From a virus: a stretch of DNA of 64,000 nt. The DNA is taken from the IMG/VR virus record IMGVR_UViG_3300030339_000025. The stretch is one strand, 5' to 3'. A program made the position numbers and the translations under genes. A model generated the notes under the pieces. That model saw only the letters and a program-made list of their open reading frames with translations, had not been told where the DNA came from and searched no databases. Below, one piece after another: positions 9 to 58,605 of the stretch (position 1 is its first letter; each line of letters begins with the position of its first letter).

Positions 9-221
9 TTATTTTGATGATATTTTTGCTAATTTCTTTAATTTAAGTTTTCTAGTTCTTTGTTTATTAAATTTATAATTTTCACATTCAGGATTAATAC
101 AACCTATTTTTGGACCAAAAAAATAATATTTATTAGATTCTGTTGAGCCACAATTAGGACACGTACCTTCAGTACCTTCAGTTATAATTCTACAAAGTGG
201 TGGTGCTGGTTTTTGTTTCAT
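9..221 (-). CDS. small zinc-ribbon protein with C-terminal KLKLKKL tail
   Basis: CxxC...CxxC pairs in translation; C-terminus RKLKLKKLAK matches recurrent EKLKKL-type tail motif. Confidence 0.35.
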   Translation of the reverse strand: MKQKPAPPLCRIITEGTEGTCPNCGSTESNKYYFFGPKIGCINPECENYKFNKQRTRKLKLKKLAKISSK

Positions 222-715: not shown

Positions 716-1347
716 ATTTTAATAGATTCTAAAATATCACAGCAAAACACTGTCATTTCATAATTAATTGGAACAAAATCAAAAGATAACCCTAATTCTG
801 ATGGTGCTTTATAATCTGGCATAATTATATTCCAAATTCTTTTTCTTTCATCCCATTCTTTTTCCAATTCTTTTTGACGTTCTTCTGCCATTATATTCCA
901 ATCTTCTTTATCCCAATCATAATTACTTTGATCTGTATTATTTTGATAATGATAATCTTTAAATTGTGAATATTTATTTAATACTTGTTTTTGATAATCT
1001 CTTGGTAATCCAAATAGTTGAATATAGATATTGTTTTCACAAAAATAAACAACTGCTGAAGCAGAAATATTAAATGGATGGTGTTCACCTATTTTTTCTT
1101 CTTTCCTAATAATATTTTCTAAAATAAATTCTGAAAAATTTATTTCTTTTAATTCTTTCCAAGTTAAATCTGAAGGTAGAAACGGATATCTATCTTTTTT
1201 TAAAATCCAATCAGCAGAAGAAAAATTACATTTCATTAACATATTTTTTGTTAATTCAATATACTCTTTCTTAATCTCTTTTAATACTGATATAAGTTCT
1301 TCTCCATTACCTTCAAATTTGAAAGCATTATAAATTTTTGTACTCAT
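712..1347 (-). CDS. hypothetical protein
   Basis: 211-aa intact ORF, stop/start coupled with neighbours (ATGA overlaps). Confidence 0.35.
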   Translation of the reverse strand: MSTKIYNAFKFEGNGEELISVLKEIKKEYIELTKNMLMKCNFSSADWILKKDRYPFLPSDLTWKELKEINFSEFILENIIRKEEKIGEHHPFNISASAVVYFCENNIYIQLFGLPRDYQKQVLNKYSQFKDYHYQNNTDQSNYDWDKEDWNIMAEERQKELEKEWDERKRIWNIIMPDYKAPSELGLSFDFVPINYEMTVFCCDILESIKI

Positions 1348-2237
1348 TAAATTGATTTAATTTTTTCTAATTTTTCTTTTCTTTCTGCTTTTAGTAAATC
1401 AAATTTTGCATTTAATATAAGATCAAAATCAATTGGTGTTACTTGAATGTTATGTGATTTAATATAATCATCAATTTCAGTGTTATTTTCTTCAGTCAAT
1501 CTTTTTATTACGTTATACGATTTAACTTCTTCGCCTTTTTCTTTTGCTTCTTTTTCGATTTGTTTTATAACAGAATTTCTAGCAAATCTTCTAATACGAG
1601 TTTCTTCTGATGGTATAAATTTTAATATTTTATTTATCAATTCAGAACCACGAAAATTATCATTTAATGAATTCCAATAATGATTAGGATCAAATAATTG
1701 AATTTTTATACTAAATCCTCTAACTTCATCAAATGCATACCAATCTTTTTCTCGTTGTTTCCATTGCTGTCTTGATACACTTTCGTCTGGATCACATTGA
1801 TTTTGACAATACCAGTCTTCTAAAAATTCTAATAAAATGTTTTTGTGCTCATTTACTATAATACTAGGATATACTAATATTTTTCTATTATTGATGGCTT
1901 GTATAGATATATTTAAATGAGCCATAAAATCATTTATATAAGTACATTTAGATAGAATTTTTGATGCTTGAAATAGATATGATAATATTGTTGTATCATC
2001 ATTGATTTCTATTTTTTTTATTTTATCTTTTAATTCTACTTCGGTAATTGCTTCATATTCAATCCTTTTTATTATATCATAATGTTTATCAATATGATCA
2101 GTAAAAGCAGCTGCATAACTTTTTGCTAATTTGTTTTCTGATGCTTCTTTAAATCTATCTAATCTTTTAACAATTTCGTCTTGTATAAATTTGATGCTTT
2201 TTCTAGACATCATTCCATCATATGCTTTTAAACTCAT
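1347..2237 (-). CDS. hypothetical protein
   Basis: 296-aa ORF in same-strand block, coupled to downstream gene. Confidence 0.35.
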   Translation of the reverse strand: MSLKAYDGMMSRKSIKFIQDEIVKRLDRFKEASENKLAKSYAAAFTDHIDKHYDIIKRIEYEAITEVELKDKIKKIEINDDTTILSYLFQASKILSKCTYINDFMAHLNISIQAINNRKILVYPSIIVNEHKNILLEFLEDWYCQNQCDPDESVSRQQWKQREKDWYAFDEVRGFSIKIQLFDPNHYWNSLNDNFRGSELINKILKFIPSEETRIRRFARNSVIKQIEKEAKEKGEEVKSYNVIKRLTEENNTEIDDYIKSHNIQVTPIDFDLILNAKFDLLKAERKEKLEKIKSI

Positions 2238-3291: not shown

Positions 3292-3825
3292 ATGAGAATT
3301 TATAAAACTACAAATAAGATTAATGGTAAAATTTATATAGGTCAAGATAAAAATGATAGAAAAAATTATTTTGGCAGTGGTTATATTATAAAAAATGCTA
3401 TAAAAAAATATGGTAAATCTAATTTCACTAAAGATATATTAGAGGTTTGCAACAATGAAAAAGAATTAAATGATAGAGAATACTTTTGGATTAAATTTTT
3501 TGATTCTAAAAATCCAAAAATAGGGTATAATATAAAAGACGGAGGAGGATATGTAGGAAATAAATTGGATATACACGCAAATAGAATAAATATTTTGAAA
3601 AAAATATCAGAAAATCATGCTGATGTTAGTGGTGATAAAAATCCAATGTATGGAAAAAAACATAGCGATGAGTCAAAGAAAAATATGTCAATAAATACTA
3701 AAAACACGTTTAAAAATAATCCTAATTTAATTAAAAATCATAGTATCACCATGAAGGAAAAATCCAAAGGTAGAAATAATTCTAATTATAATCCAACTGA
3801 AGTTTTACAAATTAGAATCTTGTAA
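3292..3825 (+). CDS. GIY-YIG homing endonuclease with NUMOD3-like repeats
   Basis: N-terminal RIYK...KIYIGQ (GIY/YIG) motifs; C-terminal NPMYGKKHSDESKKNMS repeats typical of phage Seg/I-Tev-like HEGs; lone plus-strand gene inside a minus-strand block. Confidence 0.7.
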   Translation: MRIYKTTNKINGKIYIGQDKNDRKNYFGSGYIIKNAIKKYGKSNFTKDILEVCNNEKELNDREYFWIKFFDSKNPKIGYNIKDGGGYVGNKLDIHANRINILKKISENHADVSGDKNPMYGKKHSDESKKNMSINTKNTFKNNPNLIKNHSITMKEKSKGRNNSNYNPTEVLQIRIL

Positions 3826-12974: not shown

Positions 12975-15900
12975 TTAATTAAATAGGTATTTAATACCAA
13001 ACATCATTTGCCATCTTGAACTAATACCTGTTGAATTTTGGTATGGTTGAGTAAATGGAGTTGTTCCTGTCTGGAATGGAAGCGAAAATGAAGGAGTTTT
13101 TCCATCTGCAGCGAGACCTTCATATTTTAATATGTTAGTAGCTGTAGGAATTTTAACAACACCCCAATCTCTGTTAATTAAGTTTCCAGCATTAATCATA
13201 TCCACTGAAAACTTAAGTGTGTGTGTCTTAAATTTAATATCTTGTGTAATATTTAAATCTAAGTGACTAAAGTATGGCGCTACAGTTGCATTTCTTTTAG
13301 AGTATTGACCCCTGTGAGTATTAAGATAGGTTGAATTAGAAATAAAAGCGTCTAATTGTGACCAAATTTGTGCAGATGTTCTTGTGTCAGTAACACCTGT
13401 TGTAATTGTACCTAAACCTCCAGAGCCGACTTTAACTAGGTTGATGTCAGCAATTGTTTTTGGAATATACATCAAGTCATTACCTGAATTACCATCACCA
13501 TTTAAGTCACCATTATAAACATATGAATTTACACCGTTATTAGTTAATTCGTAAATTGCTCCAAATGTTGTAGCAAGATATTTTCCTTCATTTAGTTTGT
13601 AAGCGAAGTTGGCAATAAGTCTGTTTGGCTGATAATATGACGCATAACCCAAATTAGCCGCATTAGGATCCTGATTAGAAACAGGTACTGCACTCCATAA
13701 TGACGAGGCTGTTGATCCATATTCTGCGGTGTTCTTGGATACTGAACGTGTGTATGCTATACCATAGGCTAAATTTTCAGTAGTTCTTTGAATTTTTGCA
13801 GTCAAAGTGTAAACATAGCCTTTACTTGAATTACTCATTAAAATTGCATTACCTATATTAGGATTTTCTAAGGTCGCTGTTGGCGTTCCTGCATAATATT
13901 TGTTAGTATTTGCAACCGAAGTTAAGTAACGGGTTCTGTTATCAACACCACCTAATGCAAATCCGTTGGACTCATTTAAATTTATGTTAGAGTAATAAAC
14001 TGCATTAATGTCTTGTGTATAATTGTATTCAGCGCCAATCATCCAGCCATCTTCCAATCTCTTATCAATAGCTAAAGATGACTTCCAAGCTGTTGGATAT
14101 TTAAAGTTGCTAGAAACCAAAGCAGTACTATAAGAAGCATTAGCAGATCCAGCTGTTGGTCTTAAAGCATTAGGATCAACATTAAACGCTGTTTTGTTAG
14201 CTGCATTGGTGAATGAACCAAATTGAATACCATTGTTTGAAGCCTGGTTAGAAATCCAAACGAATGGTGGAGGTCCTGCGAAGATACCAGTACCTCCTCT
14301 GACTTGTAATGTTTTATCACCTTTAGGATTCCAGTTGAAACCTAATCTTGGTGAAACAATAATATTATTCATTGGAGCTTTACCAATGTTATAAGTCGAT
14401 CCATCTTTGAATTTTAATGCATCAAATGTTGGATTATCTGTCATTGACTGTTTGTAGAAGGTTTCATCAAGTCTCAAGCCAAAAGTTAAGGTGAAATCAT
14501 TTGATACTTTCCACTTATCCTGTATGAACTGAGATAATTCTGTTGATCCGGCATTAGCCCAAGGAAATTCACCATTAGGTAAAGCTGAATATTGCAAGTA
14601 GTATGATTTAGCATTTAACTTTCCGTTTTTTGCTGAATTATAAAAGTCTGTCAAGCTATTGAATTGATAAACACCTTGATAACCAGGCGCAAATGCGTTT
14701 TGATATTTTTTAATTGAGTTTTGAGTACCTACTGTGAGTTCATGCGCACCTTTATAATAAGTTAAGATGTCATTTAATTGATAAACGTCTGTATTCAATA
14801 CGTTATTGTAAGTGTACATTTCGTAACCAAAGGTTGTATAAATATTACCATTGTTTAAAATATCAACTAATGGGAAAGTTCCACTACTAGAATGAGGAGA
14901 ACGGAAATCTCTCAATGCAGTATAACCAATTTGTAATTTATTTGATAGCCTATTATTGAAATGAGTATTCAATTCAGCAATAAAAATATTAAAGTTATTA
15001 TTGATTACATAACCACTACCATAGAAAGGCATTGAATAGGTACCTGGCTGCCCACCAGTTGTTTGACCAGAGCCTGGTCTTGAAGTAGATGCAAATTGAT
15101 CGGATGATGATTTTAAGTAGTTGTATTTTAATGTAAAAGTATTCTTACTATTAATGTTCCAGTCTAATTTTGCAGTAATTTTATCAGAATAGGTTTTGAA
15201 AGTATAACCTTGAAAAGCACCTGGATCATATCCAAACTTGGTCTTTAAGAAACTAGATAAAGCTGATAAAGTGTCAGCGTTTGCTTGAGAATAGTTTCCA
15301 CCAGCAGCATGAGATGCGTCTGAAGGCAGCATGGAAGTCGCTGGTGCATCTTGTCTAACTTGTTCTCCACTTACGAAGAAAAATAATTTGTCTTTGATAA
15401 TTGGACCTCCTAAACTAAATCCTTTGATAGAATAATCAAAAGGAGTTTTTACAACTGTTGTTGGACCAACATTGTAACCTAAATAATTTTCATTCCTAGA
15501 ATATTGATAAATAGTTCCTTTGAAAGTATTTGTTCCACTTTTAGTTACGGTGTTAACGCCTGTTCCAGCAAATCCACCTTGCTTAACATCATATGGTGAT
15601 ACGTTAACTTGAATTTGTTCAATAGCTTCTAATGAAATTGGTTGTGCGGATGTTTGTCCACCTAAGATAGATGATAGACCAAATGAGTTATTAAAATTAG
15701 CTCCATCAACTGTCATATTATTATATTGACTACTTCTGCCGCCAATATTCAATCCTTGGGAGGTAGGTTCTAATTTTACAAAATCTTGAATTGAACGATT
15801 TATTGTTGGTAAACGATCAACTTGAGCTCTTGTTATTAACTCCTGAGAACCAGTTCTTGAACTACTAAATGTCTTGTCTTGAACGCCTTTTACAATAACT

Positions 15901-16250
15901 TCTCCTACTTGGATCGCTTCATCAGTAAGTTCAAAATTTTGTTTAAATGTTTGACCTAAATTCAGAAAGATATTGTTTATTTTTTCTGATTTAAGTCCAA
16001 CAAAAGCTGTTGTTAAAGTATATGGCCCACCAATTTTTAAATTTGGTAAGTTATAACGACCATCAGTTCTAGTCGTTGTCATATACTTAGTGCCTGTTGG
16101 AACATGAACTGCCATTACTACAACATCTTGTAATGGCGACTTGCCTTCTAAAATTGTTCCTGAAATTTCAGAAGTGGTTTCTTGTGATTTTGCTATTATT
16201 GAAAACAATATAAGCATTATCACTAACATCACTCTTTTTAATTTTCTCAT
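12975..16250 (-). CDS. TonB-dependent outer-membrane receptor, SusC/RagA-like
   Basis: Signal peptide MRKLKRVMLVIMLILFSIIA. Carboxypeptidase-regulatory-like N-domain, plug and a large beta-barrel. C-terminal ...GIKYLFN aromatic terminus. Confidence 0.8.
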   Translation of the reverse strand: MRKLKRVMLVIMLILFSIIAKSQETTSEISGTILEGKSPLQDVVVMAVHVPTGTKYMTTTRTDGRYNLPNLKIGGPYTLTTAFVGLKSEKINNIFLNLGQTFKQNFELTDEAIQVGEVIVKGVQDKTFSSSRTGSQELITRAQVDRLPTINRSIQDFVKLEPTSQGLNIGGRSSQYNNMTVDGANFNNSFGLSSILGGQTSAQPISLEAIEQIQVNVSPYDVKQGGFAGTGVNTVTKSGTNTFKGTIYQYSRNENYLGYNVGPTTVVKTPFDYSIKGFSLGGPIIKDKLFFFVSGEQVRQDAPATSMLPSDASHAAGGNYSQANADTLSALSSFLKTKFGYDPGAFQGYTFKTYSDKITAKLDWNINSKNTFTLKYNYLKSSSDQFASTSRPGSGQTTGGQPGTYSMPFYGSGYVINNNFNIFIAELNTHFNNRLSNKLQIGYTALRDFRSPHSSSGTFPLVDILNNGNIYTTFGYEMYTYNNVLNTDVYQLNDILTYYKGAHELTVGTQNSIKKYQNAFAPGYQGVYQFNSLTDFYNSAKNGKLNAKSYYLQYSALPNGEFPWANAGSTELSQFIQDKWKVSNDFTLTFGLRLDETFYKQSMTDNPTFDALKFKDGSTYNIGKAPMNNIIVSPRLGFNWNPKGDKTLQVRGGTGIFAGPPPFVWISNQASNNGIQFGSFTNAANKTAFNVDPNALRPTAGSANASYSTALVSSNFKYPTAWKSSLAIDKRLEDGWMIGAEYNYTQDINAVYYSNINLNESNGFALGGVDNRTRYLTSVANTNKYYAGTPTATLENPNIGNAILMSNSSKGYVYTLTAKIQRTTENLAYGIAYTRSVSKNTAEYGSTASSLWSAVPVSNQDPNAANLGYASYYQPNRLIANFAYKLNEGKYLATTFGAIYELTNNGVNSYVYNGDLNGDGNSGNDLMYIPKTIADINLVKVGSGGLGTITTGVTDTRTSAQIWSQLDAFISNSTYLNTHRGQYSKRNATVAPYFSHLDLNITQDIKFKTHTLKFSVDMINAGNLINRDWGVVKIPTATNILKYEGLAADGKTPSFSLPFQTGTTPFTQPYQNSTGISSRWQMMFGIKYLFN

Positions 16251-16421: not shown

Positions 16422-16661
16422 TCATTTATAAGATTGTAACATTTTTAATTTTTCAACTCTATTTTTTTTAAATAAAAGAGGACAAAAATCAGGAGTTATT
16501 TTATCAGGTCCGATATTACCTAACATTAATTGTGGACCATTTTTCGTTATAATTATATTTTTATGATAGCAAGAATATGGATTTTTTATATAAAGATTGA
16601 CTTTTTTTAAATGCTCACAATCTTTGCAAGAAAAAACTTTTATTAAAATTGGGCCTTTCAT
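16422..16661 (-). CDS. small Cys-rich protein, paralogue of 16658..16924
   Basis: MKGPILIKVFSCKDCEHL...ITPDFCPLLFKKNRVEKLKML; tandem duplicate. Confidence 0.4.
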   Translation of the reverse strand: MKGPILIKVFSCKDCEHLKKVNLYIKNPYSCYHKNIIITKNGPQLMLGNIGPDKITPDFCPLLFKKNRVEKLKMLQSYK

Positions 16662-16924
16662 TTTAATTTTTTTAATTTTTCAACTCTATTTCTTTTAAAT
16701 AAAAGAGGACAAATGTCAGGTGTTATTTTATCATACCTTATTGGGCATACAAAAAATGTACTACAATCTGGATATTCTAATTTTAGTTCATCTTCTTGTA
16801 TAACTATATCTTTATGATTACATAGATATGGTGGTTTTTGGATTGAAAAATTAAGTCCTGTAGTATCTACTAAATGAATACAATCTTTGCAAGAAAAAAT
16901 TTTTATTAATATTGGTCCTTTCAT
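16658..16924 (-). CDS. small Cys-rich protein, paralogue of 16422..16661
   Basis: MKGPILIKIFSCKDCIHL...ITPDICPLLFKRNRVEKLKKLK. Confidence 0.4.
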   Translation of the reverse strand: MKGPILIKIFSCKDCIHLVDTTGLNFSIQKPPYLCNHKDIVIQEDELKLEYPDCSTFFVCPIRYDKITPDICPLLFKRNRVEKLKKLK

Positions 16925-18263: not shown

Positions 18264-19091
18264 TCATTCTCCATATAATTCTTTTATTCTTTGAAGTTTT
18301 TTAGCTCTATAATATCCTATACTTCTAGTATTTATTTTTAAAAATTGATGTTTTTGATTTATTCCTATATCATCAACAGAAAAAAATATAGATAAGGTTT
18401 TTTGATAAAAACTTATATTAGAATATTCTTGTGTTATTATATTATCATTTTCATCAGTTAAAATAGTACAAATTACTCCAGGTTGATCTATATTATTTTT
18501 ACGACCAATTAAAATTATATCATCATCAATTAAATCATCAATAATATATGGAATATTACCAATTAAAAGATTATCATTGGTGTCATATGATAAATTCATA
18601 TCTAATAAATAATTTAGAATATATTTATATGTATTATTATTTGATACTAACCATTGCGCTGGACCTAGTCTACCTTCAGACGCAATATAGTTACTTGCTG
18701 ATATAAGTTTAGAATATACTTTTTTTGAAATTGATGATGAATCGTCGTTTATATTTTGTATATTAATAATATCTAATTTATTCATAGGTGCATTTATTCT
18801 ATTTTTTTCACCTAATTCTGTTATTATTTTAAAATATGCCTTATTTATTTCATTTTTAATATAATTATATAAAAAATATGTTTTTTGTATATCATTTGTT
18901 CTATCTAATAATACGTTTTCTTCAATAATAATGTCCAAATTATGTAAATTAATATTTTTTGAAAATATTTGCGGTGAAATTGAAAATGAACTTCTTTGAA
19001 GATCAATAAATTTCACATTTATTTTATGTTTATTAACTCCTTTTACTATATAAAATTTATTATCAAAAAGTTCTGCTTTTATTTTTTGCAT
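18264..19091 (-). CDS. hypothetical protein
   Basis: 275-aa ORF. Confidence 0.3.
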   Translation of the reverse strand: MQKIKAELFDNKFYIVKGVNKHKINVKFIDLQRSSFSISPQIFSKNINLHNLDIIIEENVLLDRTNDIQKTYFLYNYIKNEINKAYFKIITELGEKNRINAPMNKLDIINIQNINDDSSSISKKVYSKLISASNYIASEGRLGPAQWLVSNNNTYKYILNYLLDMNLSYDTNDNLLIGNIPYIIDDLIDDDIILIGRKNNIDQPGVICTILTDENDNIITQEYSNISFYQKTLSIFFSVDDIGINQKHQFLKINTRSIGYYRAKKLQRIKELYGE

Positions 19092-23667: not shown

Positions 23668-23946
23668 TTACACTCCAGTTACTTTTAATATATTTTCTAA
23701 TTTTAATTTTCTTTCTTCTTTAATATTAATAAAATAATCATGGAAATATATTTCATTTTCTCCGATATATCCTTCTACATATTCAGTTGATTTATTTAGT
23801 CTAAACCTATAATCACTAAAAGGTATATCTTCATTATCATTTATTGTTATAAAGTCATTTGGCTCAAACACAGAGCTTATTCTAATAACTTCATATAATT
23901 TACCTTCGATAAATCCAAAATATGTTTTTTTACAAAATACTTTCAT
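23668..23946 (-). CDS. hypothetical protein
   Basis: 92-aa ORF; C-term KEERKLKLENIL tail motif. Confidence 0.3.
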   Translation of the reverse strand: MKVFCKKTYFGFIEGKLYEVIRISSVFEPNDFITINDNEDIPFSDYRFRLNKSTEYVEGYIGENEIYFHDYFINIKEERKLKLENILKVTGV

Positions 23947-24202
23947 TAATTTTAATTAATTTTTCTTTTCTTGAGAAAGATTTAATTCTATATATTTTAA
24001 ATATTTCTTCTGATTTATATAAATGATGCTCTGTTGCTTCATATTCCCCCCATTCTTCAATACAATGATAATTATCATTCCATCCAGATTTAAAAATAGT
24101 TAAAGATACTGCATTATCTTCATCATGATATTTATAAAAATGTGTAGATTTATATTGAATAAAATTATATTTAGCATTATTAACCGGAACTATCATTCCC
24201 AA
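23930..24202 (-). CDS. hypothetical protein
   Basis: 90-aa ORF. Confidence 0.3.
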   Translation of the reverse strand: MGMIVPVNNAKYNFIQYKSTHFYKYHDEDNAVSLTIFKSGWNDNYHCIEEWGEYEATEHHLYKSEEIFKIYRIKSFSRKEKLIKINESIL

Positions 24203-24666
24203 GTATTATAAGGAAATTTAATTAAATTACAATTATAATATTTTGAATCATTGCTAACTTCTTTTATTAGCCAAGATGGTGATAAAAAAAATTCATTTTC
24301 TTCTTTTAATTCAATTTCAGCAACTACAAGTCCTTTATTTTCACCAGAGAAAATATCAACATCCCAATGTTTTTTACCATATTCAATAACTGTCCGTTCT
24401 TTAATTATTGTTTTATCACACATTTTAAGTAGATCCTTAGCATCTTGAATAGGTATTTCATATTCAAATTCATCTCTAGAAATATTTTCAGTTTTACCTT
24501 TGATTGTAACAAATCCAGTTGTATCTTGTATTCTTATTCTGACTGTTATTCCATTATTACACAAATAGCCTTGTTCTATTTGATATTTATCAACTATTTC
24601 AATAGAACGAATTTCGGACATAAGTTTATATTTATCAACTATAAATTTTCTTTCAATTTCTTTCAT
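24193..24666 (-). CDS. CYTH-domain protein (CyaB-like class IV cyclase / triphosphatase fold)
   Basis: N-terminal EIERKFIV motif and acidic residues spaced as in CYTH. Confidence 0.5.
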   Translation of the reverse strand: MKEIERKFIVDKYKLMSEIRSIEIVDKYQIEQGYLCNNGITVRIRIQDTTGFVTIKGKTENISRDEFEYEIPIQDAKDLLKMCDKTIIKERTVIEYGKKHWDVDIFSGENKGLVVAEIELKEENEFFLSPSWLIKEVSNDSKYYNCNLIKFPYNTWE

Positions 24667-24982
24667 TATCTATTTTATTTAATTTTATTTTTCTAATTTC
24701 TTTTTTTGTATAAAAATAATCTTCAAAATTTGGAAGATATAAATTGTGAATTTCGTTAGTTGAGATAAATGACCATCCTTCATGTGGTGTTTCTTTTCCA
24801 CGAAATACCAAATTAATAATATTATACATAATAACATTAGTAATGTTATTTTCTTTATTCCAGTGTGTGATTTTTTCTATATTATATGTTTTATTTTTAA
24901 GAAAAAGTATGTTAGTATTTTTTACTTTGTAATTTTTCTTACATAAAACTTTATCTCCAATATTAAAATCAATTTTGACCAA
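24653..24982 (-). CDS. hypothetical protein
   Basis: 109-aa ORF; C-term KKEIRKIKLNKI. Confidence 0.3.
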   Translation of the reverse strand: MVKIDFNIGDKVLCKKNYKVKNTNILFLKNKTYNIEKITHWNKENNITNVIMYNIINLVFRGKETPHEGWSFISTNEIHNLYLPNFEDYFYTKKEIRKIKLNKIDNERN

Positions 24983-25478
24983 TTTCTAATATTTTTTTAA
25001 GTTTTTGTTTTCTAACTTCTTTTATACTATCCTCACTTTCAAGCCATTCTATGTCAGAAGTCTTTCTTAGAGATGAAAATTTAGTTCTCATAGTTCTTTT
25101 TACATAATCAAATTGAGTATTATCAAATCCAGATATTAATTCAACATCAGTTAGTTCAATTTTAGACATACCATTAGTGTATCTATCTAATTCTTTAACA
25201 TATAAAATACATCTATATAGTTCACCTGGCGAATTATTTTTATAATCTTCAGGAGACATAAGATTGACGGTGTTATCATAATAACCTTTTCTATTAGACA
25301 TAGTTAATTCTTTTTTTAAGTTATTAAAATTTTCTAATAGTGTTGAGTAGTTTAATTCGGTTTTTTGTAAATTTGAATTAGTTTGTGAACATTTTTTTAT
25401 AATTTTTATATATAAAACAAGAAAGAGTATGCTTGTTGAAAAACATACTCCTAAAGCTATTAAGATCAAAACTGACAT
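24969..25478 (-). CDS. membrane-anchored protein, paralogue of 33311..33706
   Basis: N-terminal TM helix; shared YTNGMSKIELTD ... IEWLESEDSIKEVRKQKLKKI with 33311..33706. Confidence 0.4.
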   Translation of the reverse strand: MSVLILIALGVCFSTSILFLVLYIKIIKKCSQTNSNLQKTELNYSTLLENFNNLKKELTMSNRKGYYDNTVNLMSPEDYKNNSPGELYRCILYVKELDRYTNGMSKIELTDVELISGFDNTQFDYVKRTMRTKFSSLRKTSDIEWLESEDSIKEVRKQKLKKILEIGQN

Positions 25479-27771: not shown

Positions 27772-28335
27772 TTAATTCTTCCATAATTTATTGAGTCTTT
27801 TTAATTTTTTTAATCTCTCTTCTTTTATATCATTCAATTCAAATTTGTTTATGATATTTTTTAATAAATATGCATTATCATTACTATCAAATACAATTAT
27901 TTTATTAATGTAACTTGTATTAGTTTTACTATTTCTTAATAATTGAAAAATAATATTCCATTTAGAAGGGGTTAATGTTGTTGTATCTTTTAACACCATT
28001 AATTCGTAAACTTCATTTTTAATAAAACTACAATAATTTATTTTTGCTTTAACAGTTTTTAATTTAGTAGTATAATTTTCTAATATCTGTTTTTCTATTT
28101 TTTTGAATTTTTTATTATACTTAATAGAATTTATAATAAATGGAATATAAAATATAAAATTAAAAAAAACTGAGAAAATAATATATAAAGGACTAAATTT
28201 ATAATTTTTGATTATGAAATATTTAATTATTTCGATAATAATTATGATAAAAGGCAAAATAATACTTGCACGTTTTATATAATCATATTGTTCTCTAAAC
28301 GTCCATTTATCATCAATATATCTTAAAAGTCTCAT
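27772..28335 (-). CDS. membrane protein
   Basis: two predicted TM segments; C-term KEERLKKLKRL tail. Confidence 0.3.
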   Translation of the reverse strand: MRLLRYIDDKWTFREQYDYIKRASIILPFIIIIIEIIKYFIIKNYKFSPLYIIFSVFFNFIFYIPFIINSIKYNKKFKKIEKQILENYTTKLKTVKAKINYCSFIKNEVYELMVLKDTTTLTPSKWNIIFQLLRNSKTNTSYINKIIVFDSNDNAYLLKNIINKFELNDIKEERLKKLKRLNKLWKN

Positions 28336-40548: not shown

Positions 40549-40977
40549 ATGAATAATATCAATCCTAGAGTAGGAGTAGCAGTAATAATAAGAAATAAAA
40601 AAAACGAAATATTACTTGGCTATAGAAAAAATATTAATTTAGGTTATCATACTTGGGGATTACCTGGGGGTAAACTTGATTTTGGTGAAGACCTAAAAGA
40701 TTGTGCTATAAGAGAATTAAAAGAAGAAACAAATTTAACTGTGGATTATAATAATCTTGTACTTGCTGGTGTTACTAATGCTATTTTTGATAAAGAAACT
40801 CATTATATTACAGTTATATATGAAGTTGTAAAATATATTAATAAAAATGAACTTAATAATTTAACAATTGTTGAGCCAGACAAATGTGAAGAATGGAAAT
40901 TCTTTAATTTTAAAGAATTTCCAGAAAATCTATTTTTGCCATTGAAAAATTTTGTGTATGAAAGAAAAATATTTTAA
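40549..40977 (+). CDS. Nudix hydrolase (MutT-like)
   Basis: Nudix box GGKLDFGEDLKDCAIRELKEETNL. Confidence 0.65.
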   Translation: MNNINPRVGVAVIIRNKKNEILLGYRKNINLGYHTWGLPGGKLDFGEDLKDCAIRELKEETNLTVDYNNLVLAGVTNAIFDKETHYITVIYEVVKYINKNELNNLTIVEPDKCEEWKFFNFKEFPENLFLPLKNFVYERKIF

Positions 40978-41233
40978 TAGGTTTTGTGATTATTCTTTTA
41001 AAGAAGGAGATTTTGTAATATGTAAACAAAATAGTGGATTTAGTCACGATTTAATATTAGGTAAAAAATATAAAGTAATAACATCAACATATGTGAAATT
41101 TGGTGCTAATCAGATTGACATAATAGGTGAAAATGGATTTTTATCTGGATTATTTGCAAGCAGGTTTACTACAGTTAAAATAGAAAGAAAAAATAAATTA
41201 ATAAACATAAATAAAATAAAAGATGAAAACTAA
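40952..41233 (+). CDS. hypothetical protein
   Basis: 93-aa ORF. Confidence 0.3.
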   Translation: MCMKEKYFNRFCDYSFKEGDFVICKQNSGFSHDLILGKKYKVITSTYVKFGANQIDIIGENGFLSGLFASRFTTVKIERKNKLININKIKDEN

Positions 41234-42937: not shown

Positions 42938-43416
42938 AATTTATAAAAACATATGAAGGCTATGGTTATAAATGGAAAAATATAGTTGAAAAAAATGACA
43001 AATTATATATTAATTTATATCAATTAGCACGTGAAATGGAATATTCTGCTAATAATGAAAGAGAATTTAAAAAATTAAGAAGAGGACATTATTCTACACC
43101 TTCTGATATAGAAATTATATCAAATCAGGAATGTGAATATAGGAATTTAATTTTTAAGTTATTAATTGACAAAGTTATATCATTTGAAGATGAAAATTCT
43201 AATTCACATTTTGGTATATGTGATAGAATTTCGTTTGAATCAGGGCCAAGCGGATTCGTTAAAGAAATTCAATATACATTTCAATTTGAATATATAAGTA
43301 TAAGAATATATGAAGAAGATGAATGGTATAATGTAGGCGCAGGAAATAAAGATGTTATAGTACATTTAAATATAGATCCTGAAATATATAAAAATAATAT
43401 AAAATTTAATATATGA
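42934..43416 (+). CDS. MKxIKxFE/KYNI-family protein (array 3, member 2)
   Basis: MKFIKTYEGY...KFNI. Confidence 0.5.
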   Translation: MKFIKTYEGYGYKWKNIVEKNDKLYINLYQLAREMEYSANNEREFKKLRRGHYSTPSDIEIISNQECEYRNLIFKLLIDKVISFEDENSNSHFGICDRISFESGPSGFVKEIQYTFQFEYISIRIYEEDEWYNVGAGNKDVIVHLNIDPEIYKNNIKFNI

Positions 43417-44108
43417 TAACTAAATTCGAATTATATAATGAAAGTATAAATTTTAATTTAAAACTTATAACAAGTTTATTTCCAATATTATATAAAAAGG
43501 CAATAAAAAATATTATTAATATACATCAATCATTATCAGAGGATCATATTCTTGAATTTATAAACCATTATATTTATAATAACTATGGTGTAGATTTGCC
43601 TAACTCTAAAGAAATATATAATTATGTTAAATATTTAGTTCATAAAAATTTTATACATAAAAACGATAATATGTCTGAATCATTAATGTCATACACATTT
43701 ACAACTAGTGGAATGACAAGTAAAAAATATTATTTACCAACTACACCTATTGATAGTAGGGATTTATTTATTTATATTAGAACTCTTGATATTATAAAAA
43801 CTAAAAATTTATTAAAACAAGGTGCAGATGTAAATATTCAAGATAAAAATTTTGGAAGGACACCATTAATCAAACTTATATTAGGATATAGTCATAACGC
43901 GGAAAAAATAATTAAAATGATTAAAATATTAGTTAAATATGGTGTAGATTTAGACATTCAGGATTACAACGGATGTACTGCATTAATGGCAGCATCTGGT
44001 GCTAAATATATAGTATCTTATCCAATAATGTATGAATTAATAGAACTTGGTGCAAATTGGAATATTAAAACATTAGATAATAAAGATTTTATAGATATAT
44101 TGATGTAA
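43413..44108 (+). CDS. ankyrin-repeat protein with family-type N-terminus
   Basis: MITKFELYNES N-term; GADVNIQDKNFGRTPL ... GVDLDIQDYNGCTALM ankyrin consensus. Confidence 0.55.
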   Translation: MITKFELYNESINFNLKLITSLFPILYKKAIKNIINIHQSLSEDHILEFINHYIYNNYGVDLPNSKEIYNYVKYLVHKNFIHKNDNMSESLMSYTFTTSGMTSKKYYLPTTPIDSRDLFIYIRTLDIIKTKNLLKQGADVNIQDKNFGRTPLIKLILGYSHNAEKIIKMIKILVKYGVDLDIQDYNGCTALMAASGAKYIVSYPIMYELIELGANWNIKTLDNKDFIDILM

Positions 44109-45793: not shown

Positions 45794-46426
45794 TTATATT
45801 ATATATAATTTTTTTAAGATTTTATTCTTTAATTTTTTAAAAAAATCAAATGTTAATACTTTCATATTATAAATTTCTTTTATTTTATGATTTCTTATAT
45901 TATATCTATAATGTGGTGCCAATTTATGTATTAAGACACCCAATTTACCATCTTCATTTGAATCTATTAATGTGCTTTCCATGACCATCAATTCATTTAA
46001 TTTATAATATTCACTCAGCCAAGGTATTGTTAATATTAATTTCACTGTGTTACCGCAATAAATAGGTACTAATACATTTAATTTATCATATTCATTCAGT
46101 CTATCTTTAATAAATGTGCTGATATTATTATGCGTAGTTGAATAATTTTTATATAAAAAATAATACACCTCATCGTATTTATAATAAAAACGATTGTTTT
46201 TCCAATCTTGCTCAAATAAACAAATCCCTGTAACCTTTGATGGTAAAGTAATTGGTAATCCTGATATTTTACACAATTTTATTTTCCTAATAAATTGTGT
46301 ATCATAAAACATAAATATGGATTGTGGATAATCTTTGTGTGTAACAGGATAACATGAATTATATAAATTACAAAACCAATTTATTATTTCTTCTTTTGTT
46401 ATTTTTGGGTTTCTTGGTTTGTTCAT
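45794..46426 (-). CDS. hypothetical protein
   Basis: 210-aa ORF. Confidence 0.3.
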   Translation of the reverse strand: MNKPRNPKITKEEIINWFCNLYNSCYPVTHKDYPQSIFMFYDTQFIRKIKLCKISGLPITLPSKVTGICLFEQDWKNNRFYYKYDEVYYFLYKNYSTTHNNISTFIKDRLNEYDKLNVLVPIYCGNTVKLILTIPWLSEYYKLNELMVMESTLIDSNEDGKLGVLIHKLAPHYRYNIRNHKIKEIYNMKVLTFDFFKKLKNKILKKLYII

Positions 46427-46896
46427 AATAAATGTTCTAAAACAGCATTCCAGTCTTGATATTCATTCATACTATCTGTAATATGATTATATCCAAATTT
46501 TATTAATTCACCTTCAAATTCACCGGCACCATTTTTTTCTCTATCATCAATTAATATGTCTCCTTTTAACATATCTTTTCTATGAGTTAGAATTAATCTT
46601 TTATGAAACATATTTCCAAAATATGTTTCAATCCAATATCGTTTATCTGTTGCAGCATCAGGATTACCCCAAGGCGCGGCTGTTGCAATATACATATCAT
46701 ATTTTCCAGATAGATATAATTTATTAATTGCATCTATCGCACCTGGATATGGTTTAGGATTTCTAAATATGCCATGTATATGATCTGGACAATGTTCATA
46801 TTTGTCAAATAAATATGGATATTTTTCAAAAAATTCTTCTATGTGTTTTTTTAGGTCAACTATAACACCGTCCATATCAATAAATAGTGTTCTCAT
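46423..46896 (-). CDS. HAD-family 5'(3')-deoxyribonucleotidase
   Basis: N-terminal FIDMDGVIVD motif I. Confidence 0.6.
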   Translation of the reverse strand: MRTLFIDMDGVIVDLKKHIEEFFEKYPYLFDKYEHCPDHIHGIFRNPKPYPGAIDAINKLYLSGKYDMYIATAAPWGNPDAATDKRYWIETYFGNMFHKRLILTHRKDMLKGDILIDDREKNGAGEFEGELIKFGYNHITDSMNEYQDWNAVLEHLL

Positions 46897-47099
46897 TCGA
46901 TATCTTTTAATTTTTCTAGTTTTTTTCTACGTAAAAATTTTTCAATTTCAGCAATAGGTATTCGTTCTAAGGTATCTTCGTTTGTTACATTTTTTCTTAT
47001 ATAGTATTTATTATATAATTGTGTATAACTACTATAATTATATGGTAAAAATTTAGCACCATCATAATTTAAATCAATCCAATCTTTATCATCATTCAT
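46893..47099 (-). CDS. hypothetical protein
   Basis: 68-aa ORF; C-term RRKKLEKLKDIE tail. Confidence 0.3.
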   Translation of the reverse strand: MNDDKDWIDLNYDGAKFLPYNYSSYTQLYNKYYIRKNVTNEDTLERIPIAEIEKFLRRKKLEKLKDIE

Positions 47100-51899: not shown

Positions 51900-52796
51900 T
51901 TATTCATTTTCGTAATTTAAAAAATCTTTAATATTTTTCCATTCTTTATAAAAAATCCAAGGATTACTTGGTATTTCATTTGGTTTATCATTTTTACAAA
52001 ATTTTACCCAATCTCTATATGTTTTTAAGTTTTTATCTTTTAAATATAATTTTGATTGATCGTATGTGAAATAATTAACTTTATTATTTTTTCTTTTTCT
52101 ATTTTTATCATAACCTAGCCAATCTTGCCAATTTATCCATCCTATATTTTTATATTCAATATTTGGTGCTGAAGGTATGTTATTTGGTTTTTCGCCTGAA
52201 TTACAATATATAGTCCATTCCAAATTACTACCTAAATTTAATTTTTTTACAAAATTTTTAGCATCTTCATATTGTAAAAATATTTTATTCTTATTTGAAA
52301 CAATTTCCGTACCTAACCAATCTGACCAACTAACCCATCCGCTATATTTATAATATTCATCTGGTCTTTTTGGTAATTCATTCGGCATTTTTTTATATTT
52401 TGATAATAATCTCCAATTTAATGTTGTTTTTATATTTAAACTTCTTGAAATAATCTTTGCTTCATCATATGTTAATTTATATAAAATCATTTGTGGACTA
52501 CGCCCACCAATCAATAAATTAGTTAATCTATGACCATTTTCTTTATAAAAATTAATCCAATATATTTCCCTTTCTTCCCAATTATATATGGTGCATTCTT
52601 CAATAATTTCAAAAACAATTTCTATATTTTGTTCTTGTGACAAACGAATCCAATTAAGTTTATGATATGAAAATAATCTTATTTTTTCTTTTAAATGTTC
52701 TTTTAATCTATTCAAAGGACGACAAGTTTTACCAATATATCTAAATTCATCTGAGCCTAAATTTTTTAATCCATATATAAATATTTTTCTATCCAT
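51900..52796 (-). CDS. GIY-YIG endonuclease with three C-terminal P..IP..P..Y..GW..W.DWLG repeats
   Basis: N-terminal KIFIYGL...RYIGKT GIY-YIG; three ~35-aa repeats. Confidence 0.55.
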   Translation of the reverse strand: MDRKIFIYGLKNLGSDEFRYIGKTCRPLNRLKEHLKEKIRLFSYHKLNWIRLSQEQNIEIVFEIIEECTIYNWEEREIYWINFYKENGHRLTNLLIGGRSPQMILYKLTYDEAKIISRSLNIKTTLNWRLLSKYKKMPNELPKRPDEYYKYSGWVSWSDWLGTEIVSNKNKIFLQYEDAKNFVKKLNLGSNLEWTIYCNSGEKPNNIPSAPNIEYKNIGWINWQDWLGYDKNRKRKNNKVNYFTYDQSKLYLKDKNLKTYRDWVKFCKNDKPNEIPSNPWIFYKEWKNIKDFLNYENE

Positions 52797-52956: not shown

Positions 52957-53268
52957 TTATTTTTCATATTTTTCTTTTATTTTTATTAATTTTTCAAGTC
53001 TTCTATATTTTTTATTTTCTACTACCATTTTTCTTTTAGTATCATATATTAAATTTGTTTTTGTTATTCCTGGATTTTTTGTGCCAGTACAACTTATAAT
53101 AAATCTACCATCATCATAAAGTTCTGGTATTCCATCATTAATTTTACATAAATTATATGTAGTACCATCATCATCATAACTGACAATTATATATAGACCA
53201 TTAGCCCAACTAAAACTTTTTAATTCAAATATAATATTTATAATTTCCATTATTCTAATTCCTTCCAT
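52957..53268 (-). CDS. hypothetical protein
   Basis: 103-aa ORF. Confidence 0.3.
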   Translation of the reverse strand: MEGIRIMEIINIIFELKSFSWANGLYIIVSYDDDGTTYNLCKINDGIPELYDDGRFIISCTGTKNPGITKTNLIYDTKRKMVVENKKYRRLEKLIKIKEKYEK

Positions 53269-54971: not shown

Positions 54972-55241
54972 AAAAACCTCAACTTGAGGTTTTTTTATTC
55001 TATGAAAATAATATAAATTGTTACTCAATATCCCAGCCATCTTCCATTTTATTGGGTGATCTTCTTCAGTTGGTAGTTCTGGCTCATCTAATGGCGGATG
55101 ATAAGCATTGACATTAACATATCTATGATTACAAGAACATCCACGATGCACACAGTCATCACAAAAATAAGGAGACCCATCAGAAAATCCAGGAAGATAA
55201 CACCAAGATGCAACTTTCCCGCAATCACATAATTCTTTCAT
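54909..55241 (-). CDS. Cys-rich small protein (3' end probably over-extended through terminator)
   Basis: N-terminal CDC...C..C...CDDC..H..CSC cluster; hydrophobic tail overlies terminator hairpin. Confidence 0.3.
   Translation of the reverse strand: MKELCDCGKVASWCYLPGFSDGSPYFCDDCVHRGCSCNHRYVNVNAYHPPLDEPELPTEEDHPIKWKMAGILSNNLYYFHRIKKPQVEVFLFIFSILTKMISITIYAFIY
54972..54998. terminator. rho-independent terminator
   Basis: aacctc-aactt-gaggtt followed by T9. Confidence 0.7.
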
Positions 55242-55459
55242 AATTCTTTCAATTTATTTTTCCTTATAATTTTCAGTTTTTCTTCATTAAAAGGTACGTC
55301 CTTATACTCTAAAACCCTTTTACCGAAAAAGAAATAAGCATAAGTTGTTATTTTAAATTTGTCAGCATGTTCAATATTTTCAACGTCATTTTCATGAGTA
55401 AAATATAATCCAGTTTCTTTATGTTTTAACACAAATGGGCCAACTTTATTACTTTTCAT
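55238..55459 (-). CDS. hypothetical protein
   Basis: 73-aa ORF. Confidence 0.25.
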   Translation of the reverse strand: MKSNKVGPFVLKHKETGLYFTHENDVENIEHADKFKITTYAYFFFGKRVLEYKDVPFNEEKLKIIRKNKLKEL

Positions 55460-56175: not shown

Positions 56176-56430
56176 TTAATATTTTTTATATTCTTTAAAA
56201 AATGCATCAACATTAATATTTTTACCTTCAGTATATTCATCTTTTTCAGACTTCATAAATTTTTTTAATTCTCTCTTTATTGTACCTTCAGTTTCAAGAA
56301 TAATGCCATTTGAAGTTAAATAATCTTTAAATTCTGTTTGACAATCATTACACACATAACCAATACCGTCAATATATGTATCACACATTATATTTTCGCA
56401 ACATTTTCTATGACAACTCATTACACCCAT
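56176..56430 (-). CDS. Cys-rich small protein
   Basis: CHRKCC...C...C..C pattern. Confidence 0.3.
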   Translation of the reverse strand: MGVMSCHRKCCENIMCDTYIDGIGYVCNDCQTEFKDYLTSNGIILETEGTIKRELKKFMKSEKDEYTEGKNINVDAFFKEYKKY

Positions 56431-56713
56431 ATTCTTGTATTTTTTTTAATTTTTCTTTTCTAAGGATTTTATTTTCTATTTCTTTTATATTCATATCTTT
56501 AAGATTATTTTTTTTATAAAGTTGAAGTAGATCATAAATTCTATTTATAATATCTTTTTTTGTTAATAATTCTTCTCTATTGAATCTACCTTTATTGATA
56601 ATAATGCTTGTATCATTTATTTTAATTATAAAATCATAATCTTTACAGGTAAAAAGTAATCCAGTAGAAATATTAAGACCGTTATCTTTTAAATAATCAT
56701 CACAAGTTTTCAT
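56408..56713 (-). CDS. hypothetical protein with RKEKLKKI tail
   Basis: C-terminal ILRKEKLKKIQEYG. Confidence 0.3.
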   Translation of the reverse strand: MKTCDDYLKDNGLNISTGLLFTCKDYDFIIKINDTSIIINKGRFNREELLTKKDIINRIYDLLQLYKKNNLKDMNIKEIENKILRKEKLKKIQEYGCNELS

Positions 56714-57098
56714 TAATTTTTTTTAATTTTTCTTTTCTTAATAATTGATTTTTTAATTCTGAAAAAGAATTTTGAATTTCCATTTGCATACTGTGCTTTG
56801 GTAAAGAAATATATTGACAATTATTTGTTAATATTGCTTTCCAAATTGCACCTATTTTAATAGTTTTTACATTATTTTCTCTGGATACAAATTTATCATT
56901 TAGTCTATAATGTCGCTCATGAGTTTCAAAATTTCCACTTTCAAATTCAATTATATCCATTTCAATTAAAGTCTTAATCAATTCACGATCAATAATTTCA
57001 TAAGGTTTTGAATTATATTTATTTAAACAACATTCTACCAAACCGTCAATTGTTGTAATTTCAGCACCACATATTATTTTTTTCAGAATGTTTTTCAT
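56700..57098 (-). CDS. hypothetical protein with RKEKLKKI tail
   Basis: C-terminal QLLRKEKLKKINENL. Confidence 0.3.
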   Translation of the reverse strand: MKNILKKIICGAEITTIDGLVECCLNKYNSKPYEIIDRELIKTLIEMDIIEFESGNFETHERHYRLNDKFVSRENNVKTIKIGAIWKAILTNNCQYISLPKHSMQMEIQNSFSELKNQLLRKEKLKKINENL

Positions 57099-57960: not shown

Positions 57961-58605
57961 TTATTTATTTATTTTTTTATTATTTAAAAATCTAAAACGG
58001 GATTCTCTCATTTTTATTTTTGTTTCAGAAGAAAGTGATTTTCCTTTATTACAAGAAACTTTACCCATATGTGATATTGATAATTTTATTTTAGTTTCTT
58101 CTGATATTATTTTTCCTTTATTACTATTTCCTATTTTTCGTTTTGTTTCTTCTGAAAATTGTCTTCCTTTATTTCCTTCACTAATTTGTTTTTTATGTTC
58201 TTCTGATAATTTTTTTCCTCTTTTACTGTTTCTCATTTTTTCTATAGATTCTAATGACATTTTTCCACCTGTTCCACCATTAGTGCCATTTGTTAAATCA
58301 GAACCTATTTCTTTATAAAACTTGATCCATTTTATTTCTGCATTATTCAATTGTTCTAAATTATTACATTCTTCTAAAACCAAGACCTTTGCTCTAAAAT
58401 TATTTTTTAGCAAAGATAATATCCACATGTTTTTATGTGTTTTATTTTTTAATTCAGAGTTTTTGTAATGTTTTTTAATTCTGTCATATAGATTAACTGT
58501 TTTGCCTATATATCTTATTTGTTCAGTTATTGGATCACATAAACAATATATTACATTATTATTAGGTAATCCAATAATATCATCTATATATTTTTTATTA
58601 TTCAC
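57961..58605 (-). CDS. GIY-YIG homing endonuclease with NUMOD3 repeats
   Basis: VIYCL...IRYIGKT; repeated EEHKKQISEGNKGRQFSEETKRKIGNSNKGK. Confidence 0.65.
   Translation of the reverse strand: MNNKKYIDDIIGLPNNNVIYCLCDPITEQIRYIGKTVNLYDRIKKHYKNSELKNKTHKNMWILSLLKNNFRAKVLVLEECNNLEQLNNAEIKWIKFYKEIGSDLTNGTNGGTGGKMSLESIEKMRNSKRGKKLSEEHKKQISEGNKGRQFSEETKRKIGNSNKGKIISEETKIKLSISHMGKVSCNKGKSLSSETKIKMRESRFRFLNNKKINK

Follow-up and report, generated by a model that had tools for sequence, protein, structure and literature searches.

A recurrent C-terminal basic tail on small proteins of a clade of AT-rich huge phages

Genomic context of the tailed genes

Positions 16422 to 16924 of the window, the 64,000-nucleotide stretch of viral DNA analysed here, hold two tandem minus-strand genes, 16658..16924 and 16422..16661, whose products end in variants of one short basic tail that recurs on other proteins along the window (carriers, Table 1). 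The window has a GC content of ~25% and is 92–93% coding with the standard genetic code, its genes ending in TAA (71), TGA (35) or TAG (5). An alternative genetic code was considered and discarded, as the coding density was unchanged when TAG was read as sense. Exact protein matches were found on a 75-kb metagenomic contig (ENA ERZ27248700 k141_1555871), with fragments in several JGI and Logan assemblies.

The genes around the window carriers are T4-like accessory genes (Dam, PNK, RNA ligase, Y16D and GIY-YIG/NUMOD3 endonucleases), and the RNA-ligase-like protein is 58% identical to its counterpart in the 540-kb Prevotella Lak megaphages. An orthologue of carrier 1347..2237 is present on a 531-kb contig (ERZ27297473 k141_239578), in a locus that shares several gene families with the window (glycosyltransferase, RNA ligase, PNK) in similar order; by its gene content and order, the window is assigned to a huge phage of 25% GC, syntenic with this contig. 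A DNA search for cultured relatives matched only a Microcystis phage methyltransferase, and tblastn with the 296-aa carrier 1347..2237 gave no match in phage genomes.

The accessory genes also include three GIY-YIG/NUMOD3 homing-endonuclease-like ORFs with mutual local similarity (3292..3825 (+), 51900..52796 (-) and 57961..58605 (-)), an ankyrin-repeat protein (43413..44108 (+)) and a von Willebrand factor A-domain protein (37648..38283 (-)). A 774-aa protein of 13 RCC1 repeats is encoded at 60285..62609 (+) (RCC1-like domain, E = 8.5e-173). An 803-aa protein at 30782..33193 (-) combines a Major Vault Protein (MVP) shoulder, a Vault_3 repeat and SPFH/Band-7 domains, and has homologues of 50–53% identity in the complete huge-phage genomes LR756500 (462 kb) and LR756501/LR756503 (735 kb).

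Shine-Dalgarno (SD) cores precede only 1 of 111 window genes, compared with 4.4% of random 16-mers, and the A content at −20 to −2 before the starts is mostly 53–68%. The premise of an SD-less system, put forward in the initial annotation of this DNA, is borne out by these values, which are consistent with Bacteroidota-type SD-independent initiation. The window further encodes a 1091-aa SusC-like TonB-dependent receptor (12975..16250 (-); CarboxypepD_reg, Plug and outer-membrane beta-barrel), an unusual auxiliary gene for a phage. Together, the SusC-type receptor, the near absence of SD sites and the A-rich start regions point to a Bacteroidota-like host.

A recurrent tail at the C-termini of window proteins

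The initial annotation had listed at least 11 ORFs ending in an R-K-E-K-L-K-K-(I/L)-like tail, and all 11 exist and translate as described. Within a set of 111 greedy, non-overlapping window ORFs, the pattern R..KL.[KRN][ILM] was matched 16 times, with 15 of the 16 matches ending 1–9 residues before the stop codon, and a position matrix added the weaker tails of 16422..16661, 55238..55459 and 33703..34125. The window therefore has a total of 18 carriers, about one protein in six, plus one internal copy of the motif (45794..46426), so that every ORF first listed is real while the count was too low. One carrier (40952..41233) is encoded on the plus strand, and the motif is thus not a minus-strand feature. 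The carriers were described as unrelated, which is mostly correct; the paralogue pairs detectable among them are three only, 16422/16658, 23668/24653 and 24969/33311. When 20 window carriers were scanned against Pfam and PHROGs, no significant family emerged, the weak sub-threshold matches being of zinc-ribbon type only. The motif DNA had also been placed within ~20 nt of the next start codon in each case; this holds for 6 of the 11 ORFs, the remaining five (9..221, 16422..16661, 23668..23946, 27772..28335 and 33311..33706) being followed by gaps of 66–171 nt.

Table 1 Tail-bearing proteins encoded in the window. Tails are given up to the stop codon; "Motif DNA" gives the coordinates of the motif-coding segment, and "Listed" indicates ORFs already named in the initial annotation.
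ORF	Strand	Listed	Product	Tail	Motif DNA	Downstream context and remarks
16658..16924	-	yes	88 aa, Cys-rich	RVEKLKKLK	16664..16687	stop overlaps next start (ATGA)
16422..16661	-	yes	79 aa, tandem paralogue of 16658..16924 (54.5% identity)	RVEKLKMLQSYK (weaker)	16437..16460	next same-strand ORF (12975..16250) begins 171 nt on
9..221	-	yes	70 aa, weak sub-threshold zinc-ribbon matches	RKLKLKKLAKISSK	30..53	next gene starts 69 nt after stop, in source contig
1347..2237	-	no	296 aa, well-folded core	ERKEKLEKIKSI	1359..1382	orthologues with and without tail
18264..19091	-	no	275 aa	RAKKLQRIKELYGE	18285..18308	
23668..23946	-	yes	92 aa	RKLKLENILKVTGV	23689..23712	66-nt gap
23930..24202	-	no	90 aa	RKEKLIKINESIL	23948..23971	next ATG inside N-E codons (AATGAA)
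24653..24982	-	yes	109 aa, paralogue of 23668..23946	RKIKLNKIDNERN	24671..24694	
24969..25478	-	yes	169 aa, N-terminal transmembrane helix	RKQKLKKILEIGQN	24990..25013	
27772..28335	-	yes	187 aa, membrane protein	RLKKLKRLNKLWKN	27793..27816	119-nt gap
33311..33706	-	yes	131 aa, transmembrane helix, paralogue of 24969..25478	RREKLEKINKI	33323..33346	terminator-like hairpin 33298..33280; no gene nearby
33703..34125	-	no	140 aa	RKKKIDKINNTDNEL (variant; Ile replaces invariant Leu)	33727..33750	
40952..41233	+	no	93 aa	RKNKLININKIKDEN	41186..41209	in largest carrier cluster (17 members)
46893..47099	-	yes	68 aa	RRKKLEKLKDIE	46908..46931	Arg codon is CGT
52957..53268	-	no	103 aa	RLEKLIKIKEKYEK	52978..53001	160-nt gap
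55238..55459	-	no	73 aa	RKNKLKEL (variant; exact end)	55241..55264	
56408..56713	-	yes	101 aa	RKEKLKKIQEYGCNELS	56438..56461	
56700..57098	-	yes	132 aa	RKEKLKKINENL	56715..56738	next ATG inside AATGAA
45794..46426	-	no	210 aa, internal copy	YDTQFIRKIKLCKI (N-domain, residues 47–54)	46265..46288	

The recurrence could in principle be a compositional artefact of Lys/Leu/Ile-rich coding at 25% GC, as K, I, N, L and E are the commonest residues and K is enriched in the last 20 aa. Shuffling the residues of whole proteins gave on average 0.23 matches, 0.02 of them C-terminal, against the 15 C-terminal matches observed. Shuffling only the last 20 aa, which keeps the Lys-rich composition of the ends, gave a mean of 0.09 C-terminal matches and a maximum of 2 in 5000 trials. 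Controls of equal GC content were likewise devoid of C-terminal matches: 0 of 387 ORFs in 250 kb sampled from LR756500 (23–25% GC; 7 loose interior matches) and none in 50 kb sampled from Lak-C1 (25.9% GC). No tails were found in 50 kb sampled from LR756501. The compositional explanation is refuted, with a residual probability that we take as next to nil, and the similarity of the tails exceeds what Lys/Leu-rich, AT-biased coding produces.

Distribution among related viral contigs

Scanning of IMG/VR with a back-translated form of the pattern yielded at least 118 stretches with related loci, many of them on contigs of 100–330 kb and at several places per contig. These loci contain at least 271 distinct carriers among 1965 distinct ORFs, with a median length of 88 aa and a size range from 40-aa-scale ORFs to proteins of 296–360 aa. 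After removal of the tail, the carriers fell into at least 164 BLASTP clusters (E < 1e-3, with remote homology beyond the reach of this threshold), at least 119 of which were singletons. In some stretches among the matches listed, 20 of 21, 26 of 44 and 9 of 9 genes were tagged, and of 41 genes in the syntenic 21-kb locus on the 531-kb contig, 9 are carriers. Other tail-positive contigs include IMG/VR 3300029983_000007 and 3300030041_000009. The initial observation is confirmed and its extent greatly enlarged.

Loci around orthologues of 1347..2237 gave 6 matches (L013), 13 C-terminal matches in 39 genes (L014), 15 in 43 (L015) and 4 (L019), and no carriers were detected in more distant, GC-richer relatives. 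Carrier 18264..19091 has a likely counterpart of 262 aa on the 531-kb contig, with the same YY-R..KL tail context and position, which is also tailed. By these comparisons, the tail is confined to one clade of AT-rich huge phages and is absent from composition-matched relatives.

Among the matches listed, the extended consensus is (F/Y)..[ILV]-K-E-[LI]-R-K-x-K-L-x-K-[LI]-N-x-[IL], and the stop codon most often lies 3–5 residues past the eight-residue core. In the window and the first related loci, the stop follows the 8-mer by 0–12 aa. Among the matches listed, the motif always lies within about 17 residues of the stop. At least 11 of the carriers (at least 271), including three window proteins, are membrane proteins. 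Carriers with recognisable domains on related contigs include a protein with a Tad3 (type I Thoeris inhibitor) domain (L089 4983..5633 (-), E = 1.5e-32) and a gp32-like DNA-binding protein (L025 5514..6095 (+), E = 4.5e-7).

A tblastn search of a phage collection with a 23-aa consensus tail gave no match. Searches of protein sets of 5.8 billion and 1.84 billion sequences with a tail profile returned 3 and 1 matches, all to small (55–74 aa) unannotated proteins; a profile of this length is too short for significance. Against PDB sequences the profile gave chance-level matches only, to a 98-aa uncharacterised protein (5gjl), which we take to be SUMO-like, and to the N-terminal helix of LysRS (RREKLKKI). 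No description of an R-K-x-K-L-x-K-I/L tail was found in the literature searched.

Selection on the peptide or on the nucleic acid

The initial annotation preferred to read the motif as a DNA-level promoter or translation enhancer that is incidentally translated. More broadly, a DNA or RNA signal serving the downstream gene (promoter, translation enhancer, regulator-binding or recombination site) would account for the A-rich sequence found 23–47 nt before many starts in genes that lack SD sites and have A-rich initiation regions. A 24-nt DNA profile derived from the motif instances was compared with 146 kb of sequence on both strands. It gave 47 sites, all 47 in frame 0 of a gene (43 C-terminal, 4 interior), and no site that was intergenic, out of frame or antisense. 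Counted from the Arg codon, the next start, where one is present, lies 23–47 nt downstream; among the matches listed it uses frame +1 in 137 cases and frame +2 in 74, and in 10 it shares the frame of the motif, so the motif keeps register with the upstream ORF only.

Synonymous sites within the motif vary freely. All six Leu codons are used at the invariant Leu, in the proportions seen across the genome, the Arg codons likewise follow genome-wide use, and the motif Leu codon differs in 40% of 133 homologous carrier pairs, compared with 37% for other conserved Leu codons. At motif positions 2 and 5, whole codons are variable. The motif is also kept where no gene follows: 38 of 263 carriers (14%) among the matches listed have no same-strand start within 40 nt, and conservation is about equal without a downstream gene (K at +1, 0.66 vs 0.76). 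The Lys codon AAG, on the other hand, makes up 4.3% where the next gene overlaps, as against 10.5% in carriers without a downstream gene and 10.9% in the background. This depletion, which also counts in favour of a nucleic-acid signal, is restricted to overlapping starts and indicates that the A-richness of the tail is a secondary imprint of the SD-less start region.

The codon and frame comparisons, the persistence of the motif where no gene follows and its invariance in an internal copy (described below) agree in showing selection on the peptide and not on the DNA. The reading as a DNA signal is largely refuted and is rejected as the primary cause; we consider it very improbable.

In many carriers the motif is followed by N-E-x, and the ATG of the next gene lies inside the sequence AATGAA, exactly 25 nt past the Arg codon. 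This spacing is the mode, found in 50 of 263 carriers among the matches listed (for example L014 1844..2701, L015 3672..4306, window 23948..23930 and 56715..56700).

Programmed slippage on a slippery poly-A run was examined as a further candidate and rejected, since runs of A7 or longer are common in all coding sequence and are not specific to tails: the sense strand of window genes contains 125 runs of at least 7 A (33 of at least 8), of which the tails hold 8. Runs of this kind are prone to slippage; at 56715..56738, loss of one base from the A run would join the ORF in frame with the gene that follows.

Gain and loss of the tail and its predicted structure

Orthologues of 1347..2237 with at least ~59% identity mostly end in ...(E/I)RKEKLxx(I/L)N... 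Five close orthologues (64–66% identical, 280 aa) and all distant ones are tail-less, their stop codons lying ~16–20 aa earlier. The coexistence of tailed and tail-less orthologues indicates that the tail was added to a protein that already existed. In this family, the downstream gene overlaps in 2 of 2 tailed orthologues examined, and gaps follow 3 of 4 tail-less ones examined; because the tail tracks an overlapping next gene, a role at the level of expression is kept in consideration.

In the AlphaFold2 model of 1347..2237 (mean pLDDT 91.6, core >90), the tail is predicted as a terminal helix (residues 281–295, pLDDT 62–69). The internal copy is also predicted as a helix (residues 43–55, pLDDT ~73–83), located inside an alpha/beta domain. 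Neither model matched a solved fold. The family with the internal copy consists of proteins of 130–210 aa with the sequence ...YDExFIRKxKLCKLNN... at residues ~38–54 and no start codon after it; R47, K50 and L51 are invariant, and the nearest stop is over 100 residues away from the motif. At L034 633..6885, 14 paralogues of this family lie in tandem, and the C-terminal part of the family members is built from tandem repeats of ~20 aa (LxExxKMNVLTP), in numbers that differ between homologues.

As we read the consensus, a helical-wheel projection places R0, K3, L4 and I/L7 on one face together with the hydrophobic residue at −4, and the variable positions 2 and 5 point away. An invariant Arg in the middle of a hydrophobic stripe suggests that the modelled helix makes a specific contact with a protein or nucleic acid, rather than inserting into a membrane.

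The tail might instead be an inherited structural or oligomerisation helix, not a portable tag, if most carriers belonged to one hyper-diverged multigene superfamily descended from a single small alpha/beta protein, of which this helix alone could still be recognised. Several features would fit such an origin, including the tandem arrays, in which another carrier follows 115 of 216 carriers (53%) and 95 of 434 non-carriers (22%) among the matches listed, the paralogue pairs of the window, the enrichment of aromatic and hydrophobic residues at −8 to −4 before the helix, and the place of the helix within the fold of the internal-motif family. The division into at least 164 BLAST-unrelated clusters argues against it, as do the breadth of carrier sizes, from 40-aa-scale to 296–360 aa, the inclusion of transmembrane, Tad3-domain and gp32-like proteins, and the gain and loss of the tail in the 296-aa family among orthologues of 60–66% identity. 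A single superfamily is in our judgement unlikely, while deserving to be weighed. Part of the recurrence may nevertheless reflect common descent and not independent tagging, given the aromatic strand that directly precedes the helix in many small carriers.

Selection on the peptide would also be expected if it acted in cis as a nascent chain, a basic helix in the exit tunnel at the stop codon slowing termination and promoting re-initiation at the overlapping, SD-less start. Such a role would explain why the motif is independent of protein family and always close to the stop. An overlapping start follows 82% of carriers and 43% of non-carriers (naive ORF calls, among the matches listed), a high rate that may only reflect the tight tandem arrays of the carriers; taken with the coupling of tail and next gene in most loci examined of the 1347..2237 family, it keeps termination and re-initiation alive as an explanation. 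The variable distance to the stop (0–12 aa for the window together with the first related loci) differs from that of known arrest peptides, however, and the 14% of carriers among the matches listed that have no gene within 40 nt keep the motif equally. Carrier 33311..33706 precedes a terminator-like hairpin, and the R, K and L residues are invariant in the internal copy far from any stop. We regard action as a nascent peptide as improbable.

Proposed function of the tail

The explanation we favour, with moderate confidence, is that the tail is a docking or targeting helix common to a diversifying repertoire of accessory proteins. The peptide tag, which the initial annotation had offered as its alternative reading, is favoured over a DNA signal and fits both the selection on the peptide and the modular gain and loss, its function as a tag being putative. 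The proposed element is a modular peptide of ~12–16 residues, [ILV]-K-E-x-R-K-x-K-L-x-K-[IL]-N-x-[IL], followed by 1–9 variable residues and the stop codon. It would fold as a basic amphipathic alpha-helix presenting the invariant R0, K3, L4 and I/L7 on a single face, and is appended to a large, fast-diversifying set of small accessory proteins that includes membrane proteins and an anti-Thoeris protein homologue. Through it, many unrelated proteins would bind one shared partner. This may be nucleic acid, a component of the virion or of its assembly, or a hub of phage or host origin with an acidic groove. As the genes overlap and lack SD sites, the Lys-rich DNA of the tail also lies within the A-rich initiation region of the next gene, which shapes synonymous choice without creating the motif.

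One special case of docking, suggested by analogy, is recognition of the C-terminus by an AAA+ unfoldase or protease, the tail serving as a shared degron or adaptor-binding motif that would set when early proteins are removed. Basic C-terminal motifs of the MuA type (RRKKAI) are recognised by ClpX, and a basic, hydrophobic C-terminal motif on many unrelated proteins, membrane proteins included, would suit such a role. The conserved helix is, however, followed by 1–9 non-conserved residues instead of forming the extreme terminus, and one copy lies inside a folded domain, so that a proteolytic signal seems decidedly improbable.

A bolder form of the docking proposal is a genome-wide address label, in which one C-terminal helix would route at least 100 small effectors to a single destination. 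This could be a compartment or hub that the phage builds, or the giant capsid, from which the effectors would be injected along with the DNA. We think this reading doubtful. The membrane-protein carriers (at least 11) are a poor fit to a pure virion-cargo tag and, for some carriers, speak against packaging in the virion. A vault-cargo idea, prompted by the MVP-like gene in the window, was rejected: homologues of that gene also occur in LR756500 and LR756501, whose sampled 250 kb and 50 kb have no tails, which means that it does not specifically co-occur with the tail.

Huge phages encode hundreds of small ORFans without a functional clue, and a selected, portable helix would group more than 160 sequence families of them into one class. 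A shared tail implies a single partner, which a 16-residue peptide could fish out. If the partner belongs to the virion or to a compartment, the tag would mark out which effectors of uncultured megaphages are injected or localised, and engineers could use it to load cargo; should the partner be a host hub, a central target of takeover would be revealed. Were the address-label reading true, no larger repertoire of viral cargo tags would be known, and the tag would give a handle on both its destination and the early effector arsenal of uncultured megaphages. At the level of method, codon-level tests can separate overlapping SD-less start regions from peptide motifs.

Comparison with known systems

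Termination-reinitiation signals such as calicivirus TURBS, and the A-rich SD-independent regions of Bacteroidota, resemble the megaphage tail in that an element in the last codons adjoins an overlapping start, with no SD site and an A-rich leader. They act as RNA, however, whereas conservation of the tail follows the reading frame and the amino acids. Unlike promoter or initiation signals in DNA, the motif has no intergenic sites and no fixed spacing (23–47 nt or absent), and unlike nascent-chain arrest peptides, it keeps no strict distance to a stalled codon.

Like the multigene families of large DNA viruses, the carriers form tandem arrays and diverge rapidly, with only a short segment conserved. 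In contrast to such families, the tail is also found on clearly unrelated larger proteins and has been gained and lost within one orthologous family, and homology outside the motif was not detected across the clusters (at least 164) at BLASTP E < 1e-3.

The cargo peptides of encapsulins and bacterial microcompartments (BMCs) are short terminal helices, often C-terminal and on variable linkers, which bind a single shell protein and can be transferred as modules between cargo proteins. The tail is likewise a C-terminal predicted helix, on at least 164 sequence clusters, but its consensus is different and far more proteins are tagged per genome. Pfam scans of ~50 window proteins detected no encapsulin or BMC shell protein among them.

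In phage T4, the capsid targeting sequence (CTS) of the internal proteins is a peptide of ~10 aa (MKTYQEFIAE) that is removed by the prohead protease. A T4-like protease site (L/I-x-E) was considered for the carriers and rejected, [ILV]xE being present at −4 to −2 in 52 of 271 carriers (19%) among the matches listed, with 41 expected if positions were independent. The N-termini of the carriers (at least 271) have no common motif. The T4 CTS is N-terminal, loads proteins into the scaffolding core of the prohead, and is the sole feature common to the diverse injected internal proteins, several of which are anti-defence proteins (PMC3012670). The megaphage tail is similarly a short terminal peptide that is the only common feature of diverse, fast-evolving small phage proteins, and the window phage has T4-like accessory genes. 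It differs from the CTS in being C-terminal, basic, unrelated in sequence and present also on membrane proteins. Membership of the tail in the class of the T4 CTS or of encapsulin/BMC cargo peptides is not supported; as an analogy, the T4 CTS appears to be the closest to the megaphage tail, and the encapsulin and microcompartment cargo peptides would be similar to it in principle.
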